DNA of 7,589 nt from the IMG/VR virus record IMGVR_UViG_2654587571_000012, positions 1-7,589 of that record. One strand, written 5' to 3'. The notes beneath the pieces were generated by a model. It was not told where the DNA came from. It searched no databases and saw nothing but the letters and a program-made list of their open reading frames with translations. Made by a program: the position numbers and the translations under genes. This DNA is from a virus. Its lineage: Duplodnaviria; Heunggongvirae; Uroviricota; Caudoviricetes. Below are positions 1-7,589 of this stretch, one piece after another; position 1 is the first letter of the stretch; every line of letters begins with the position of its first letter.

Positions 1-165
1 AAAATGCCAGATAACATTCCGGCCTCCCCTGATTCAGGTTATAAATGACACAATATCTTGACAACATCCGTCACTGTCTGTCAGAAAATGTACTGCCATA
101 TAGAAGCAACATGTGAAGTACATCTATCCTTTTGAGCCAGCACCTCTCCACCGAAAGTCAGTGCT
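1..165 (+). repeat. Copy 1 of a ~165-bp structured element, cut at its 3' end by the IS
   Basis: 1..165 aligns by eye with 6779..6943. The first ~66 nt are identical, a central block is diverged with one indel, and the last ~27 nt (agcacctctccaccgaaagtcagtgct) are identical. It contains TTGACA (58..63) and the 5' arm of a hairpin (135..143). The matching 3' arm is interrupted after gtgct (165) by the IS end. Confidence 0.7.
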
Positions 166-2428
<2,263 letters not shown>

Positions 2429-2457
<29 letters not shown>

Positions 2458-2938
2458 CGAGTAAATCCGGTAATTTATCCCCTGCCCGCGCACACTGATT
2501 TGCCCCCTTAGCAATAAGGGTTTTCAGATGGTCAAGATGGCGCGGTGTTAAATCAGGAAACTGTCGCTGCATGGATAAAGGGATGGAATCAAGCGTACTG
2601 GATAACGCCATTGCCAGCTTACTGAGGGCAAAAATACAGAACCCGGTGTCAATAAGTTTTCCTTTTGACACCTCATTTTTTAACTGCTGTGTAACAGCCT
2701 GTTCTGCTGTCAGTTCCCATCTGGCAATAAGCAATTTCTCCTCATAGTCGTCTTCGCTATCGCCATCAGGCACATCGTTTTTACTTCTCCTCAGATACGA
2801 TATGTAAAAATCGCGCCAGGCATCCAGATCCAGTTGCCCTCGCTTATTCGATATCGGGGCACCCGGCAATTTCTGCAATCTGCGAAGCTGGCGATCGGTC
2901 AGACTTAAATGCCTGGCAACTTCAGTCTGCGTAGCCAC
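2429..2938 (-). CDS. nu1: Terminase small subunit (Nu1-like)
   Basis: 169 aa with a GTG start at 2938 and GAGG upstream. The C-terminal half resembles lambda Nu1 (FCIFALSKLA..., LDSIPLSMQRQFPDL). The N-terminal DNA-binding region differs from lambda. It overlaps the terminase A start by about 29 nt, as in lambda. Confidence 0.75.
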
Positions 2939-2984
2939 TCCTCACCTCGCAAAAACTCTCACCTCACAATCACAACAAAACCGG

Positions 2985-3084
2985 TCATGTCCGGTTTACA
3001 TGTCTGTTTTTTGTTCATGTCCGGTTCACAGAAGACCTGTTTTTATATTTTTCATATAGTTAACTTGAAGAGAAACCGGACATG
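2985..3084 (-). promoter_or_regulatory. cosB: three terminase-binding R repeats with an A/T-rich spacer (possible IHF bend site)
   Basis: TCATGTCCGGTT at 2985..2996 and 3015..3026, and the inverted copy AACCGGACATG at 3074..3084. An A/T-rich stretch at 3040..3060 separates the inverted copy from the other two. The repeats sit between cosN and the Nu1 start. Confidence 0.7.
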
Positions 3085-3121
3085 GATCCCGGAAAATTTT
3101 CATAAATAGCGAAAACCCGCG

Positions 3122-3133
3122 AGGTCGCCGCCC
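3122..3133 (-). other. cosN: lambda-type 12-nt cohesive end sequence
   Basis: The + strand AGGTCGCCGCCC is the reverse complement of the lambda cohesive end GGGCGGCGACCT. The adjacent ~35 nt (CGCGGGTTTTCGCTATTTATGAAAATTTTCCGG on the minus strand) also match my recollection of the lambda left end. The cosQ side (3135..3170, cgtaacctgtcggatc.ccggaaagg) likewise looks lambda-like. Confidence 0.8.
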
Positions 3134-3340
3134 CGTAACCTGTCGGATCGCCGGAAAGGACCCACGAAAATGATAATAATTATCATCTACATGAGGTTTA
3201 TCACGACATGTGTGTACGCCATCAAACCACGAGAAATAATCAATTATTACGCAGGTATCGTATTAATTGATCTGCATCAAATTAGCGTAAAAGCAACTTC
3301 AGATAATACAAATCAGCAACACTGAATACGGGGCAACATT

Positions 3341-3565
3341 ATGTCATCAAAGAACAGAACCCGCAGAACAACAACCCGCAACATCCGATTTCCAAACCAG
3401 ATAATTGAACAAATTAACATCGCTCTTGACCTAAAAGGTTCAGGTAATTTTTCAGCGTGGGTTATTGAAGCCTGCAGAAGAAGATTAATTAATGAAAAAT
3501 ATTCTCAATTTGTACCCAACAAAGACAAACACGACCAGAGCACCTGTTCAGACAGGTTTACTTAA
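3341..3565 (+). CDS. DUF3950 / YlcI-YnfO-like small protein (cos-proximal moron)
   Basis: 74 aa, MSSKNRTRRTTTRNIRFPNQIIEQINIALDLKGSGNFSAWVIEACRRRL... It occupies the same position and has nearly the same N-terminal sequence as the small ORF at the lambda right end, as I recall it. The upstream DNA (3135..3340) is also lambda-like. Confidence 0.8.
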   Translation: MSSKNRTRRTTTRNIRFPNQIIEQINIALDLKGSGNFSAWVIEACRRRLINEKYSQFVPNKDKHDQSTCSDRFT

Positions 3566-3584
3566 ACGACTTATATATGACACA

Positions 3585-3612
3585 AAAAGCGACCACTAAA
3601 GTCGCTTTTTCT
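3585..3612. terminator. Bidirectional intrinsic terminator between convergent genes
   Basis: Stem AAAAGCGAC (3585..3593), loop cactaaa, stem GTCGCTTTT (3601..3609). It is flanked by an A-run on one side and a T-run on the other, so both transcript orientations end in a hairpin plus U-tract. It sits between the stops of the 3341..3565 and 3647..3961 genes. Confidence 0.6.
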
Positions 3613-3646
3613 TATGGTAACAGGCAATAACTCTCTCAGATATTTT

Positions 3647-3961
3647 TTAGCATTTTTTTGACCGCGCGTTTCCGGACGTATTCTGTTCTCCTGTCCCTTT
3701 ATATCGTCGGAATACCCGCCGCTCTTCAAATCCCATTCCCAACTCAGAATGTAGTCTGTTGACCGCTTGTTTTATTTCGGTCAGGTTCACCGGTGAAACC
3801 GGAGTCCGGCGCGCCTTACGCAAACACTCTGCTCGTTTCTGTGCCGCCACTTTTCTTTTCTGGTCATCACTTAGCTGTACCATCACTTTTGCCCATCGTT
3901 CAGCTGCTCTCCGGTACAGTCCTTTTTTCTCCAGACATTCTGCCACGTGATCATGTAGCAT
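3647..3961 (-). CDS. Small regulator-like protein, possibly ANR (AraC negative regulator) family
   Basis: 104 aa with ATG at 3961 and a strong GGAGGT Shine-Dalgarno 5 nt upstream. The N-terminal ~50 aa (AECLEKKGLYRRAAERWAKVM...RKVAAQKRAECLRKAR) fit my recollection of the ANR helix pair. The C-terminal half is unassigned. Family assignment is from memory only. Confidence 0.6.
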   Translation of the reverse strand: MLHDHVAECLEKKGLYRRAAERWAKVMVQLSDDQKRKVAAQKRAECLRKARRTPVSPVNLTEIKQAVNRLHSELGMGFEERRVFRRYKGTGEQNTSGNARSKKC

Positions 3962-4426
3962 AAGTGACCTCCGATTATCTACAGACTGCCATCCTGAATT
4001 TACCTTCCCTTAATGAAATAACAATAAAAAACAAACCACGCAAAAACAATAAAACAACACACAAAAAAAACTAAATAATAAACAAAAATAATCACCTTAT
4101 TTTATTATTTTTTGAGGGAGCAATTACTGAACAAAAAACGCTGACTATATACTCAAAACCAAACAACTATTCTGCCAATCAGGTATCATGGCAACACACG
4201 GAATTACCGTGTTTTTGCCTTCTCTGCCCATACAATACGGGCATATACTTCATTCTCTATTGTAATATTTCTATCCATGTGCCCCACTCCATTTACCTGT
4301 AAATAATATTCAAAATATTTATCACAGAAATCGTTTTTGGCCATGAACTGAGCACACTATAAAGTCCGGAACTGACTCTTTGTTAAATTACCTTAACGTT
4401 ACCAGTAACACCTTCATAACAAAACA

Positions 4427-4894
4427 TCACGGTATACACTGGGTACGGATATATTCCTGTGCTCCTTCCAGTTGCTTCTGCATTGCCATCAGCCGTTCTC
4501 TGAGGATGAAATAATCCCGTTCAGCGGTGTCTGCCAGTCGGGGGCCGGTTGCATTATCCACGCCGGAGGTGCCGGTGGCTTCACGCACGGTACCGGAGCA
4601 GGTGGCGTTGATCCGCAGGCGCTTACGACCAGCGGCAACATCAGCACGCAGAGTTTCATTTTCAGCTCTCGCATCGGCTAATTCCCTCGAGTATCTGGCA
4701 TCAAGTGCAGCGACATCACGCTGGCGTATCTGCATATCAGTAATTGTCGCGTTCGCCAGCTCCAGCTCACTGGCTTTTTTATCGCGCTGCTCTTTGTAGA
4801 TGATGGCGTGATCACGGTAATGATTCAGCCCCAGACTAAGCGCACCACAGGCCACCAGCAGGACAATGATAACCACGCACAGAACACGGTTCAT
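4427..4894 (-). CDS. Rz: Rz i-spanin
   Basis: Start at the ATG at 4894 (MNRVLCVVIIVLLVACGALSLGLNHYRDHAIIYK...) with GGTGG upstream. Close to lambda Rz throughout from memory (DMQIRQRDVAALDARYSRELADA, ADTAERDYFILRERL, MQKQLEG). N-terminal transmembrane segment present. The 4951 start in the ORF track is a TTG and is not used here. Confidence 0.9.
   Translation of the reverse strand: MNRVLCVVIIVLLVACGALSLGLNHYRDHAIIYKEQRDKKASELELANATITDMQIRQRDVAALDARYSRELADARAENETLRADVAAGRKRLRINATCSGTVREATGTSGVDNATGPRLADTAERDYFILRERLMAMQKQLEGAQEYIRTQCIP
4489..4674 (-). CDS. Rz1: Rz1 o-spanin (lipoprotein embedded in Rz in the +1 frame)
   Basis: 61 aa, MRELKMKLCVLMLPLVVSAC... with a lipobox Cys and a proline-rich mature part (PPAPVPCVKPPAPPAWIMQPAPDWQTPLNGIIS) very like lambda Rz1. 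Entirely nested in Rz. Confidence 0.8.
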   Translation of the reverse strand: MRELKMKLCVLMLPLVVSACGSTPPAPVPCVKPPAPPAWIMQPAPDWQTPLNGIISSSENG

Positions 4895-4895
4895 A

Positions 4896-5009
4896 TCACC
4901 ACCAACGGATTGCCCAGACCAGAACAGCAATGGCCACAATACGAATGGCAAAAGCTGCCGCTCTTGTTAAATCCAGACTGGCTGGCGTCTCCACTTCAAT
5001 GCCTTTCAT
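4896..5009 (-). CDS. Possible 37-aa hydrophobic small protein between endolysin and Rz
   Basis: Translated by hand: ATG at 5009 with GAGG 9 nt upstream, MKGIEVETPASLDLTRAAAFAIRIVAIAVLVWAIRWW, stop TGA at 4896..4898, one nucleotide before the Rz ATG. It is below the ORF-track length cutoff. It could be a frame left open by the Rz ribosome-binding region. Confidence 0.25.
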   Translation of the reverse strand: MKGIEVETPASLDLTRAAAFAIRIVAIAVLVWAIRWW

Positions 5010-5102
5010 AATGGACAACCTCAGAAAGAATCTTTTATACTTCCTCACAGGGAAAGTACCTCCCTACCCATAATTTCTCCCTTGCCTTACTCAAGGTCAG
5101 AA

Positions 5103-5150
5103 AACACAAAACCCCGCTTGCTGCCAACAAACGGGGTTTTTACTTTTATT
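5103..5150. terminator. Bidirectional hairpin terminator inside the lysis cassette (between endolysin and Rz)
   Basis: Stem AACCCCG (5110..5116) and CGGGGTT (5132..5138) around a 15-nt loop. On the + strand it is followed by TTTTTACTTTTATT. On the minus strand it is followed by UUUUGUGUUUUC. Confidence 0.6.
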
Positions 5151-5229
5151 CACTTAGGTTTTACCAGTTTTCAGGATTTCGTGTTATCCACCCGCGTTGG
5201 CCAACGTCATTTTTCAGGAAAATATTCTG

Positions 5230-5763
5230 CTATCTGTCGATGTCCCAGCACGCCAGCGCGCTCTCCTGGTCACGCCGTGAGACCTGACCGTAGCAATTAT
5301 TTGAACGGATACGGCAGTCTCTGCCACCGTCCTTAATCCACCAGCGAATCGCCTCACAGGCACCTTTTCGATCGCCTGCATTAATTCGTTTATAAAACGT
5401 CGACGGGAAGCACTTACCGGGGCCAATGTTGTACGGACAGAATGACGCGATCCCCGCTTTCTGGGGTTCGGTCAGCGGCACCCGGATGTTTTTCTCCACC
5501 CATGCCAGCGCCTTGTCACGTTCGATGGCATTAACCCGGTCGCATTTTTCCTTTGACAGCTTCATGCCAGGAATAACAGGCTTACCATCCACCAGAATGG
5601 CACCACGGCAGATGGTCCAGATCCCCGCACCATCACGGTATGCCGTGGTGTGGTTACCTTCCTTTTCATCCAGAAACTGGTCGAGGATTTCAGGCGCAGA
5701 AGCACCTGCACCAATCAGCGCCAGAACGGCAGCCGACAGGCCGTATTTTATTTTTTCGTTCAT
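5230..5763 (-). CDS. R: SAR-type endolysin (T4-lysozyme fold, signal-anchor-release N-terminus)
   Basis: 177 aa. N-terminal YGLSAAVLALIGAGASAPEIL is a weakly hydrophobic SAR-like segment. It is followed by EGNHTTAYRDGAGIWTICRG, which carries the Glu-Asp-Thr catalytic arrangement of phage 21 R-type lysozymes. It lies downstream of a pinholin. Confidence 0.9.
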   Translation of the reverse strand: MNEKIKYGLSAAVLALIGAGASAPEILDQFLDEKEGNHTTAYRDGAGIWTICRGAILVDGKPVIPGMKLSKEKCDRVNAIERDKALAWVEKNIRVPLTEPQKAGIASFCPYNIGPGKCFPSTFYKRINAGDRKGACEAIRWWIKDGGRDCRIRSNNCYGQVSRRDQESALACWDIDR

Positions 5764-5880
5764 GGGGATTTATCGATTTCTAATCCCTTGATATGTTAGG
5801 TATATAATCCAACACTCATGGTCGCTCTCATAAACATATCCCTTGAGACGCAGCAGATTACAACAAATGAAGCCATATAA

Positions 5881-6195
5881 ATGAACAGTAAAGAAAGTTT
5901 GCGCAGAAGATTTTTACAACTAATGACAGAAAACGTTAAATCAGAGTTACTTCTTCTGATGGCAGATAATAACGAAGCAACAAGCAGCATTCTTGCAGAC
6001 CCTTACGGTAAGATCTCACATAAAACGCTGGATATTATTACCACAACATTAACACCGCTGATGCTTCAACGGCTGAAACATAATATCAACGCATGGGTTA
6101 ATGAAGAATTAAGTCCTCCCTGCTTATGGGATTCTCGTTACGCATGTCAGCAAAAAATGCGAATTTTCAACTTACTATCACCAAAGCTCAGGTAG
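5881..6195 (+). CDS. Hypothetical protein encoded opposite to the lysis genes, between holin and endolysin
   Basis: 104-aa ORF and the only long ORF on either strand in the low-GC 5764..6450 insert. TATATAAT at 5801..5808 lies upstream. A perfect 8-bp inverted repeat AAATCCTG-N14-CAGGATTT (6201..6230) begins 6 nt after the stop. No convincing Shine-Dalgarno and no family recognised. Confidence 0.4.
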   Translation: MNSKESLRRRFLQLMTENVKSELLLLMADNNEATSSILADPYGKISHKTLDIITTTLTPLMLQRLKHNINAWVNEELSPPCLWDSRYACQQKMRIFNLLSPKLR

Positions 6196-6450
6196 CCATA
6201 AAATCCTGCCCTTCATGGCATACAGGATTTCAATGGAATCACAATGACCAACTCTTGCACAGCTGTATCCCTGACTCCCCGACAACTCAGATTTTCAGTA
6301 TCTGCTGCTATCTAAAGAGAAAGCGCACAAATGCAAGGGTCTTTCATCACGTCCTGTTATTGATTGCCTGTGACCTTTTCTTACCTCATGGAACGTTTTT
6401 TCAGTTAGAAATATTCATTTTACAACCAGTTCGTATTGTTTATTCATCGA

Positions 6451-6657
6451 CTACTCTCCCCGCGCCACCTTACGCTTATCTTCTTTAATCTTGAAATAAA
6501 GGTTAGTCAGATACGTCAGCAGGCCAAACAGCAGACTCCCCAGCACACCGATTGCCACCCACTGGGACGGAGAGACTTTGTCCAGCAGCTGCAGTAACCA
6601 GTATCCCGTCCCCACCGCTGACGTGGTGTATGACACACCCGTTGTGATTTTTTCCAT
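6451..6657 (-). CDS. S: Class II pinholin (phage 21 S-like)
   Basis: 68 aa, [68 protein letters not shown]. Two transmembrane segments and a charged C-terminal tail, closely matching S21 as I recall it. GGAGA lies 12 nt upstream of the ATG. Confidence 0.9.
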
Positions 6658-6700
6658 CTGATGTATGTCTCCGTCACCGCCGACAGAAAATGAAAGTAAA

Positions 6701-6737
6701 GAAAAACAAAAAAACCACCAGTGTCACCCACTGACGG
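6701..6737 (-). terminator. Minus-strand-specific intrinsic terminator just upstream of the holin gene
   Basis: In minus-strand RNA, CCGUCAGUG and CACUGGUGG pair as a 9-bp stem with two G-U wobbles around loop GGUGA, followed by UUUUUUUGUUUUUC. On the + strand the same positions are A:C and C:A mismatches, so the structure is strand-specific. Confidence 0.55.
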
Positions 6738-6778
6738 CCAACTCCGGGAGCCGTGATTATGGCATTCAGGCTCTGCTA

Positions 6779-6943
6779 AAAATGCCAGATAACATTCCGG
6801 CCTCCCCTGATTCAGGTTATAAATGACACAATATCTTGACAACACCCGTCACTGTCTGTCAGAAAATATACCGCCAGGCATAAGTATCATGTGAAATCCA
6901 ACTATCCTTCTGAGCCAGCACCTCTCCACCGAAAGTCAGTGCT
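6779..6943 (+). repeat. Copy 2 of the ~165-bp structured element (intact)
   Basis: Direct repeat of 1..165. It carries TTGACA at 6836..6841 and runs into the hairpin terminator at 6913..6956. Its 5' end (6784..6801) can also fold as a short hairpin in minus-strand RNA (GCCGGA/UCUGGC) followed by AUUUUU. Confidence 0.7.
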
Positions 6944-6956
6944 GGCTGTTTTTTTC
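6913..6956 (+). terminator. Plus-strand intrinsic terminator of sRNA-like unit B
   Basis: Perfect 9-bp stem AGCCAGCAC (6913..6921) and GTGCTGGCT (6939..6947) around a 17-nt loop, followed by G and TTTTTTT (6949..6955). The minus-strand reading has no U-tract after the stem. Confidence 0.65.
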
Positions 6957-7003
6957 CTTAATAAAGCATCTGTAACTGAAACAATCCGCATATTGATAAT
7001 ATA

Positions 7004-7103
7004 TTGACAGGCATCATTGCTGTCTGTGAAAAATAAGTCTCTACAAACATATAAGGCCTTTTAGCCAGCGTCTTCTTTCAGGTCAGTCGCTGGCTCTTTT
7101 TTT
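7004..7103 (+). ncRNA. sRNA-like unit C: diverged tandem paralogue of unit B with its own TTGACA motif and terminator
   Basis: TTGACA at 7004..7009, then ggcatcattgCTGTCTGTgAAAAAT (compare unit B's acacccgtcaCTGTCTGTcAGAAAAT). Terminator stem AGCCAGCG (7063..7070) and CGCTGGCT (7088..7095) around a 17-nt loop, then TTTTTTT (7097..7103). The -10 element is not canonical, so the promoter call is tentative. Confidence 0.45.
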
Positions 7104-7104
7104 A

Positions 7105-7589
7105 TTATGCTGCCGGTGCATTTATCTCCAGCACCAGACTTTCTATCTCAACGCCATACGCTGCATTTTTTGTAACATCCGTCAGCGTCAGCGCATTCAG
7201 TCCCAGTGTCAGACCGTCTTTTATAACCTGGAATGCCGGGCCAGCCACTCCATTCAGTTTCGGAGTAACCGTGGCACTGCCGGCGGTGAACACCAGCTCC
7301 AGCGTCTGCCAGTCGTTACCGTAATCGCCGAACTCCCCCAGCTTCGTGTTTCCGGCTTTCCTGTGATGCATCAGATTCACTCTGCCGTCAGTGGTCTGAG
7401 TGAAGTACGACATCAGGAACGGATTACCGGTACCCGTCATCGCCACACCATCAGGAACGGGAGCATCCGTATACAGATAAATCCCCAGCCCGAACTGATT
7501 GTTGGTCAGTGCGCCTGACAGGCGGAACTTACAGGTCAGTCTGCCGCCCTGTGTCAGCAGGGTAATTGCGTCATCCACCGGATGCGTCA
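7105..7589 (-). CDS. C-terminal fragment of a larger late-region protein (continues past the window end)
   Basis: The frame is open to the window edge; the M at 7578 in the ORF track is a GTG. A ~160-aa Gly/Thr/Asn-rich tail that looks beta-rich. Its position immediately upstream of the holin is where Stx-type lambdoid prophages carry a NanS-p-like esterase, but I cannot confirm that from the sequence. Confidence 0.55.
   Translation of the reverse strand, partial: THPVDDAITLLTQGGRLTCKFRLSGALTNNQFGLGIYLYTDAPVPDGVAMTGTGNPFLMSYFTQTTDGRVNLMHHRKAGNTKLGEFGDYGNDWQTLELVFTAGSATVTPKLNGVAGPAFQVIKDGLTLGLNALTLTDVTKNAAYGVEIESLVLEINAPAA

Follow-up and report, generated by a model that had tools for sequence, protein, structure and literature searches.

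We analysed a 7,589-nucleotide stretch of viral DNA (IMG/VR record IMGVR_UViG_2654587571_000012, positions 1 to 7,589, Caudoviricetes; hereafter the window), which is the late region of an O157-type lambdoid prophage with its lysis genes on the minus strand. Between the pinholin gene S and the endolysin gene R of this prophage lies a small, conserved protein-coding gene on the opposite strand, here called X. Our favoured interpretation, to which we give a probability of roughly 0.55 with the specific benefit left aside, is that X is a moron, in the sense of Hendrix and Juhala an autonomous extra gene inserted between the genes of a phage operon, and that it would be one of several unrelated small genes alternating at a cargo hot spot next to the endolysin gene.

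The length of the X open reading frame (ORF) is weak evidence for a gene, with 2-4% of composition-matched random 687-mers holding an ORF of at least 104 aa. Comparative data were decisive. Homologues of 104-106 aa and 64-79% identity occur in other E. coli and Escherichia prophages, and further homologues were found in Shiga toxin 2 (Stx2) phages (53% identity) and in Salmonella (40-45%). Against five diverged homologues, the pairwise ratio of nonsynonymous to synonymous substitution rates (dN/dS) was 0.14-0.39 wherever dS was estimable, and the comparisons displayed a clear surplus of third-position changes. On the strength of these ratios, the homologues of the same length and a confident AlphaFold2 (AF2) model of the product, we conclude from the comparative record that X is a real gene under purifying selection. 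This bears out the preliminary description of the DNA, which had noticed an opposite-strand ORF at 5881..6195 and, as outlined below, had placed both its frame and its start codon correctly.

In the Prokaryotic Genome Annotation Pipeline (PGAP) annotation, X is a 90-aa hypothetical protein in the same frame (WP_000138558.1, ECs_1097, at 5923..6195), and in strain EDL933 the 104-aa form starting at 5881 is named 'unknown protein encoded within prophage CP-933O'. The start at 5881 is favoured because the N-terminus that it adds, 14 codons long, is conserved (MNSKExLRxxFLQLM), because Met15 is not conserved, being replaced by Ile in Stx2 phage 86, and because phage 86 carries a GAGGA Shine-Dalgarno sequence ahead of the upstream ATG of its X homologue. 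The PGAP/RefSeq start at 5923 is probably 14 codons too short.

The gap between S and R spans exactly 5764..6450, 687 bp, in agreement with the roughly 690 bp of AT-rich DNA reported previously. Its GC content is 0.390, and that of X 0.384, compared to 0.543 for the endolysin gene, 0.522 for the holin gene and 0.476 for the whole window. The genes concerned and the elements of the gap are as follows.

~4427..4951, minus strand: Rz/Rz1, lysis genes of the window.

5230..5763, minus strand: gene R, encoding a signal-arrest-release (SAR) endolysin (Pfam Phage_lysozyme, 7.6e-24; 'lysozyme' by PGAP in identical loci); left boundary of the insert.

5764..5798: conserved block GGGGATTTATCGATTTCTAATCCCTTGATATGTTA directly upstream of R; fixed left boundary of the variable cargo region.

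5867..5884, plus strand: mini-ORF ATGAAGCCATATAAATGA (MKPYK*), five codons, its stop overlapping the start codon of X (ATGA).

5881..6195, plus strand: gene X, 104 aa, PHROG 1853, ECs_1097 in O157:H7 Sakai.

6196..6450, minus strand: remnant of gene Y ('orf5-like'), probably a late-strand YdfR/DUF1327-family wreck of about 255 bp.

6451..6657, minus strand: gene S, encoding a class II (S21-type) pinholin (Pfam Phage_holin_2_1, 1.9e-32; 'class II holin family protein' by PGAP); right boundary of the insert.

The same 687 bp were found in 631 of 5426 complete E. coli genomes, with 623 records at 99% identity or more, and megablast gave no match to the gap in the phage collection. In O157:H7 Sakai the gap lies in prophage Sp4, flanked by the endolysin gene ECs_1096 and the holin gene ECs_1100; Sp4 itself is rearranged and broken up by insertion sequence (IS) elements. 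The ATG-N12-ATGA layout of the mini-ORF and the X start is retained in the homologous loci L005 and L009, and in L010 the mini-ORF is fused in frame with the X homologue to give a 109-aa protein (P0005).

That S and R adjoin when nothing has been inserted, as had been assumed, is confirmed by phage 434 and by the Salmonella locus L077, where the two genes abut. Further cassettes with Y and lacking X are found in Stx2_95 and in an abundant form with a 296-aa Y (L081-83), in which R follows 36 nt past Y. These loci establish an insertion between otherwise adjacent genes, which is, like the shift in base composition relative to the flanking genes, a feature expected of a moron. The preliminary description had also treated the gap as one insert, which it is not: it is a composite of X and of the Y remnant. 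An occupant of the S-R slot was in fact already known and is common, namely ydfR in the K-12 Qin prophage (essQ-ydfR-rrrQ), a precedent that had been missed. Similarly, X had been called the only long ORF of the gap, but two others exist, and both were rejected as spurious. The 120-aa plus-strand ORF at 6126..6488 has no homologues or family match, and its exact sequence is absent from a collection of 15 billion proteins; in four of five diverged loci, the 64-aa minus-strand ORF at 5796..5990 either is broken or has no start. An Rfam scan of the whole window gave no match in the gap, its sole match being isrC within an IS element.

To place X in context, we surveyed about 60 lysis-cassette loci, mostly window-type copies. 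In all of them X points away from R and runs antisense to the late genes, and the interval from X to the holin gene holds either an intact Y or a 262-bp remnant, so that the position and orientation of X are kept in homologous prophages. A 48-nt boundary block next to R is common to L003, L004, L071 and L072; L005 and L009 contain it in a more diverged form, and the window copy has a 10-nt deletion. The block probably holds the translation initiation signals of R. Loci that share this block carry unrelated antisense cargo. At the endolysin-proximal site, PhiR12_2 has an 86-aa antisense ORF (phrog_2572), L087-89 have one of 95 aa (phrog_10490) with a weak, partial PADLOC match to PDC-S51 (2.5e-5), and Stx2_14744 and L084 have an unannotated antisense ORF of about 210-233 aa that belongs to no family. 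Given this fixed 48-nt boundary and at least three other unrelated antisense ORFs at one site, the endolysin-proximal site is, by comparison of these loci, a cargo hot spot of which X is one of the alternative occupants.

The ~210-233-aa ORF (L071 2735..3436; L084 ~2735..3430) runs opposite to the lysis genes in the 'empty' 511 bp that precede R in Stx2_14744-type prophages. It and the annotated Y-form gene, whose 3' end it overlaps, are two putative overlapping ORFs; it had no Pfam, PHROG or PADLOC match.

The second component of the gap is the decayed gene Y. Its start codon, an ATG at 6447, lies 3 nt past the holin stop, compared to 3-4 nt in intact cassettes, and the remnant opens with ATG AAT AAA CAA TAC GAA CTG GTT GTA AAA TGA. 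Ten codons survive intact before a TGA (MNKQYELVVK, 6447..6418), and the DUF1327 gene of PhiR12_2 opens with the same ten at 100% identity; this N-terminus is too short for the PF07041 hidden Markov model (HMM). A second piece, 6243..6374, shares 36-39% identity with residues 143-186 of the intact protein (39% for residues 146-186 of the 213-aa protein of L004) and contains two internal stops, and no ORF longer than 35 aa remains on the strand of the remnant. Intact S-R pairs, comprising a co-directional Y of 213-268 aa and a convergent X homologue, are present in phage 86, Stx2_12E129 and several assemblies, and the N-terminus of the phage 86 Y, orf5, is Pfam DUF1327 (PF07041, 3.7e-45). These alignments indicate that 6196..6450 is the wreck of Y, shortened from about 640-800 bp to 255 bp beside an intact X. 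A conserved minus-strand gene at this position had been named beforehand as a finding that would speak against the opposite-strand ORF. Such a gene does exist, as the neighbour Y, and it leaves X standing because X is conserved too.

We also asked how closely X and Y are linked. In E. coli phages X is tail-to-tail with its Y homologue, the two overlapping by 4-21 nt or standing 9-20 nt apart, and in Salmonella prophages the X homologue is likewise tail-to-tail with a 260-312-aa Y homologue, which is 27-28% identical to phage 86 orf5 over the full length and 41-44% over the C-terminal domain. L077, also from Salmonella, has the pair upstream of the holin gene and not between S and R. That the pairing has outlasted such divergence (X only 40-45%, Y 27-44% identical) and a change of position would be expected if X and Y were a functional pair, in which X, made in the lysogen, antagonises or regulates the late, lysis-associated Y, either as a protein antidote or through antisense transcripts overlapping at their 3' ends; X of the window lineage would then be an orphan left behind by the decay of Y. 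The distribution of the two genes argues against this. Y is common without X, as in K-12 Qin ydfR, Stx2_95 and the 296-aa form, and other phages carry unrelated antisense genes beside Y. Conversely, at least 622 complete E. coli genomes, which make up the most abundant lineage, have an intact X next to a dead Y. X is also intact in the remnant loci L009 and L010, where the holin gene, Y and most or all of the endolysin gene have been lost; these loci derive from relatives of E. coli (Escherichia-like species, with flanks 84-94% identical to it). As read from these loci, X is separable from Y. In addition, neither protein matches a toxin or antitoxin family, and the AF2 model of Y (predicted local distance difference test, pLDDT, 52) was uninterpretable and too poor for a fold search. 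We consequently regard the functional pair as the main rival, though rather unlikely, and rank an independent moron above it. A type II toxin-antitoxin pair formed by X and Y was rejected as such: the genes are convergent, toxin and antitoxin families are missing from their Pfam matches, and each occurs without the other.

Some additional loci show X relatives or neighbours in other settings. A distant relative (99 aa, 31% identity) lies outside lysis cassettes in L079 (5001..5300) and L080, close to a TraG_N protein and an integrase and with no Y-like neighbour called. In L077, X is head-to-head with a holin-like gene instead of the endolysin gene; this gene (4398..4691) encodes a 97-aa protein with a weak Phage_holin_2_3 match (6.4e-5) and stands between X and the S21-type holin gene. 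In L010, a PerC-family gene stands immediately upstream of the X homologue.

We next considered the regulatory signals around X, for which the following elements are relevant.

5803..5808, plus strand: putative -10 element of the X promoter, TATAAT, 72 nt before the X start, with a weak -35.

6201..6230: perfect 8-bp inverted repeat, AAATCCTG at 6201..6208 and CAGGATTT at 6223..6230, with a 14-nt loop.

6913..6956, plus strand: first strong plus-strand intrinsic terminator downstream of X (stem 6913..6947 and U7; -16.3 kcal/mol, z = -3.5).

A -10-like sequence upstream of X had been pointed out previously, and it is indeed a perfect TATAAT hexamer, contained in TATATAAT at 5801..5808. When the upstream regions of four diverged lineages (the window, L005/L006, L009 and L010) were aligned, 61 of 124 columns were identical and the longest invariant run, TATATAATCC, stood out from flanks that vary. 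A promoter for X at this site is plausible. The inverted repeat after the X stop is likewise real, but the function as a terminator that its position might suggest is not borne out: the hairpin (-12.8 kcal/mol, z = -2.15) has no U-run after it, the repeat is missing from every diverged homologous locus, and two more perfect 8-bp inverted repeats occur within the same 800 bp, three in all, which puts it at chance level. It was rejected as a terminator and is probably incidental.

Between 6195 and 6913 the plus strand holds no terminator with a proper U-tract. The scanner's lone call in this interval was a 5-bp stem at 6625..6639 inside the holin gene, with a T-run about 8 nt beyond the stem, and an X transcript that remained unterminated up to 6913..6956 would therefore cross the whole holin gene in antisense. 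This raises the question of whether the RNA is the main product, a read-through transcript antisense to the holin gene (and to an intact Y) that would damp leaky lysis-gene expression in the lysogen by pairing or by transcriptional interference. The coverage of the entire holin gene and the converging or overlapping 3' ends of X and Y in intact cassettes are consistent with such a role. We consider it improbable in view of the protein-level purifying selection, the conserved length and the confident fold of X. Moreover, the terminator at 6913..6956 has a promoter-like unit of its own at the published site of the Pas small RNAs (sRNAs), the gap has no Rfam family match, and Rho would probably terminate an untranslated 3' extension of this kind.

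A different element is found about 70 nt upstream of X in the phage 86 and Salmonella lineages, a GC hairpin consisting of CGCCAGTG, a 4-7 nt loop and CACTGGCG. It is conserved in L003 (4893..4920), L004, L069, L071, L072, L073 and L077, and is likewise found ahead of the unrelated antisense cargo genes that Stx2_14744 and PhiR12_2 carry. In one variant, CGTCAGTG/CACTGGCG, pairing is kept only as G-U in the cargo-sense RNA, suggesting that the hairpin acts in the cargo transcript, as a stem-loop at the 5' end or, with TTTTT after it in phage 86, as a terminator.

To assess what X might do, we examined its product. The preliminary description could name no family for the protein, and our searches with Pfam, NCBIfam, PADLOC and PHROG HMMs led to the same outcome: there was no match in Pfam or NCBIfam, PADLOC-DB v2 gave no match for X, Y or the 120-aa and 64-aa ORFs, which places none of them in a known defence family, and the sole match of X was to phrog_1853, of unknown function (E = 3.5e-47, profile positions 57-158 of 159). 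An N-terminal truncation of X was ruled out as the reason for this partial coverage, as full-length homologues, including phage 86 orf6, align to the same profile positions. The family is tiny: a deep profile search of 1.84 billion representatives returned only 20 relatives, counted as representatives at the 50% identity level and all unnamed, and a second profile search added the Salmonella branch, likewise unnamed; GTDB species-representative genomes contained no copy of X. A literature search produced no mention of ECs1097 or its neighbours, and a published survey of Stx-phage lysis cassettes did not discuss S-R inserts.

The structure prediction and fold search proposed earlier gave a confident AF2 model of five helices (pLDDT 86, predicted template modelling score 0.76) and no structural relative. 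Foldseek comparisons of the model detected generic helical-bundle similarity only (best E 1.9 in the PDB and 0.8 in BFVD), and a sequence-profile search of the PDB retrieved designed helical proteins only. Members of the family have no hydrophobic segment (maximum Kyte-Doolittle score over a 19-residue window 0.66-1.23), a negative grand average of hydropathy and isoelectric points of 5.0-9.3. Few residues are invariant (P41, G43, W72, E76, Q91, K92 and L99), comprising a few polar or structural positions. X is accordingly predicted to be a soluble 12-kDa five-helix protein devoid of an enzymatic, membrane or DNA-binding signature, and from these properties it most likely acts by binding another protein. 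A holin, antiholin or membrane-bound lysis regulator was rejected because these hydropathy values give no transmembrane segment and the AF2 model is a soluble helical bundle.

Combining these observations, the late operon of this O157-type lambdoid prophage would once have held a cassette of two cargo genes, of which the S-R spacer is the leftover. Its first gene would have been Y, sharing a transcript with the lysis genes and reduced in the window lineage to about 255 bp. The second would be X, still intact, facing the endolysin gene head-to-head and read in the direction opposite to the late operon. X would probably be transcribed from its own sigma-70-type promoter, with the conserved -10 at 5803..5808, and its product could therefore appear in the lysogen while Q-dependent late transcription is silent. 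As a best guess, X would benefit the lysogen, by protection against other phages or by modulation of a host protein, rather than the phage's own lysis. We infer expression in the lysogen, action by binding, benefit to the lysogen and the promoter alike.

Several points weigh against a moron. First, X has no terminator of its own, and one defining feature of a moron is thus missing. Second, a consensus scanner detected no full -35/-10 promoter for X, the -35 matching at best 3/6, and the phage 86 and Salmonella lineages lack the TATAAT and have the GC hairpin at that spot, which limits the promoter model to the window lineage. Third, the tail-to-tail X and Y of Salmonella, at another position in the cassette, may mean that X is not fully independent of Y. 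Fourth, no transcript, translation or phenotype data were found for X, and the proposed benefit to the lysogen draws on architecture and analogy, with no family or fold match to add to them. Finally, the 622 near-identical copies stem from a single prophage lineage that spread recently, and say little about selection.

These last points bear on whether X could be an inert relic, once useful, no longer expressed, and surviving through recent prophage spread. The 622 copies at 99% identity or more fit clonal spread, AT-rich prophage DNA is commonly silenced by H-NS, and evidence of expression was not found; however, purifying selection has acted on X over the long term and across lineages, including the two Y-less remnants from other species, and X has stayed intact over the same history in which its neighbour Y decayed badly, making a relic quite improbable. 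Least probable of all is a role for X in the phage's own lysis, for instance in the cytoplasm, by modulating how the pinholin is triggered or the SAR endolysin released, since cassette-borne X, although always within or beside the lysis genes (the endolysin gene, or the holin-like gene in L077), lies on the opposite strand, where late transcription would oppose it, encodes neither a transmembrane segment nor a signal sequence, is dispensable to many cassettes that otherwise resemble its own, is kept where lysis genes were lost, and alternates with unrelated genes at its site.

Among known systems, the closest to X is orf6 of Stx2 phage 86 (BAF34038), a 104-aa homologue with 53% identity that also lies between S and R, head-to-head with R and antisense to the late genes. 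Phage 86 differs from the window in having an intact Y (orf5), and the GC hairpin and a strong Shine-Dalgarno sequence instead of the TATAAT leader. Both orf6 and phrog_1853 are X's own family and are themselves uncharacterised. The K-12 Qin gene ydfR (DUF1327) occupies the slot between the S21-type holin gene essQ and the endolysin gene rrrQ, and the Y remnant is probably of the same family; unlike X, ydfR is co-directional, part of the late transcript and unrelated in sequence, and Qin has no antisense gene. In architecture the closest analogues are lambda bor and the Iss-like genes for lipoproteins that adjoin Rz in lambdoid phages, which, as phage 86 and phage 434 show, are like X small, set within the lysis region and antisense to the late operon; bor is a textbook moron expressed from the prophage. 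In contrast to X, which is upstream of R, soluble and free of a lipobox or signal sequence, bor lies downstream of Rz and encodes an outer-membrane lipoprotein, and the two share no similarity. The defence-gene hot spots of P2 and P4 are cargo hot spots of temperate phages and their satellites, where, as at the X site, a fixed boundary flanks a slot filled by unrelated small genes. The X site differs in that no occupant matches a known defence family, the slot is within an operon and the cargo is antisense. X is already in databases as a hypothetical protein, and is uncharacterised rather than a new kind of system.

The hot spot is the part of this analysis most worth following up. About 12% of complete E. 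coli genomes carry X, and among the matches listed most strains are Shiga-toxin-producing or enterohaemorrhagic (O157:H7, O103:H2, O145:H28 and O111:H8). If X is expressed in the lysogen, it would be an added prophage passenger gene that shapes the fitness or phage resistance of such pathogens, and the alternative antisense occupants of the endolysin-proximal site form a defined set of candidates that is easy to test. Should X turn out silent or trivial, the gain is a better annotation only: a start placed 14 codons further upstream, the recognition of a YdfR-family pseudogene and the removal of spurious ORFs. A bolder view, which we hold as speculative and unlikely, is that the site is a dedicated antisense-cargo hot spot, bounded by the conserved 48-nt block and in many lineages by the GC hairpin, that it holds interchangeable small genes with no assigned function (X/phrog_1853, phrog_2572, phrog_10490 and the unannotated ~210-aa ORF), and that it represents a hidden island of lysogen-expressed functions (defence, anti-defence or lysis control); X would then found a new family of small helical, lysogen-protecting proteins, possibly acting on the YdfR-family neighbour or its RNase E-linked pathway.

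Outside the gap, two tandem, similar plus-strand units at 6825..6960 and 6992..7108 (77% identical alignment columns) lie between the sialic-acid esterase gene and the holin gene, each with a perfect TTGACA, a CTGTCTGT motif common to both and a strong intrinsic terminator, that of the second unit at 7063..7104 (z = -4.1). The interval is 95-98% identical to Stx1 phages (H-19B) and to phage 434, whose record annotates the same terminators. The location matches the one described for the PasA/PasC sRNA genes (bioRxiv 10.64898/2026.05.13.724894), and the tandem units are candidate Pas genes. Based on the TTGACA units, the phage 434 annotation and the site of the Pas genes, the terminators at 6913..6956 and 7063..7104 probably belong to sRNA genes rather than to X. 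A terminator-like hairpin lies on the late strand just upstream of the holin gene, at 6739..6703 (minus strand), GGCCGTCAGTGGGTGACACTGGTGG followed by TTTTTGTTTT; its stem resembles the GC hairpin upstream of X homologues elsewhere, and phage 434 is annotated with a terminator there.

Finally, an IS3-family element occupies 174..1387 (orfA 1040..1387, orfB 174..920), with the Rfam isrC match at 1233..1355, and adjoins a truncated terminase large-subunit gene (1408..2514), so that the prophage is probably defective. Other genomes with the identical S-R insert have the IS elsewhere, one example being PV15-279, where it lies in the endolysin gene. Between Rz and the terminase genes, a 104-aa PerC/Pch-family regulator gene (3647..3961, minus strand; pchA in Sakai Sp4) and, on the opposite strand, a YlcI/YnfO (DUF3950) gene (3341..3565, plus strand) are further passengers of the late region.

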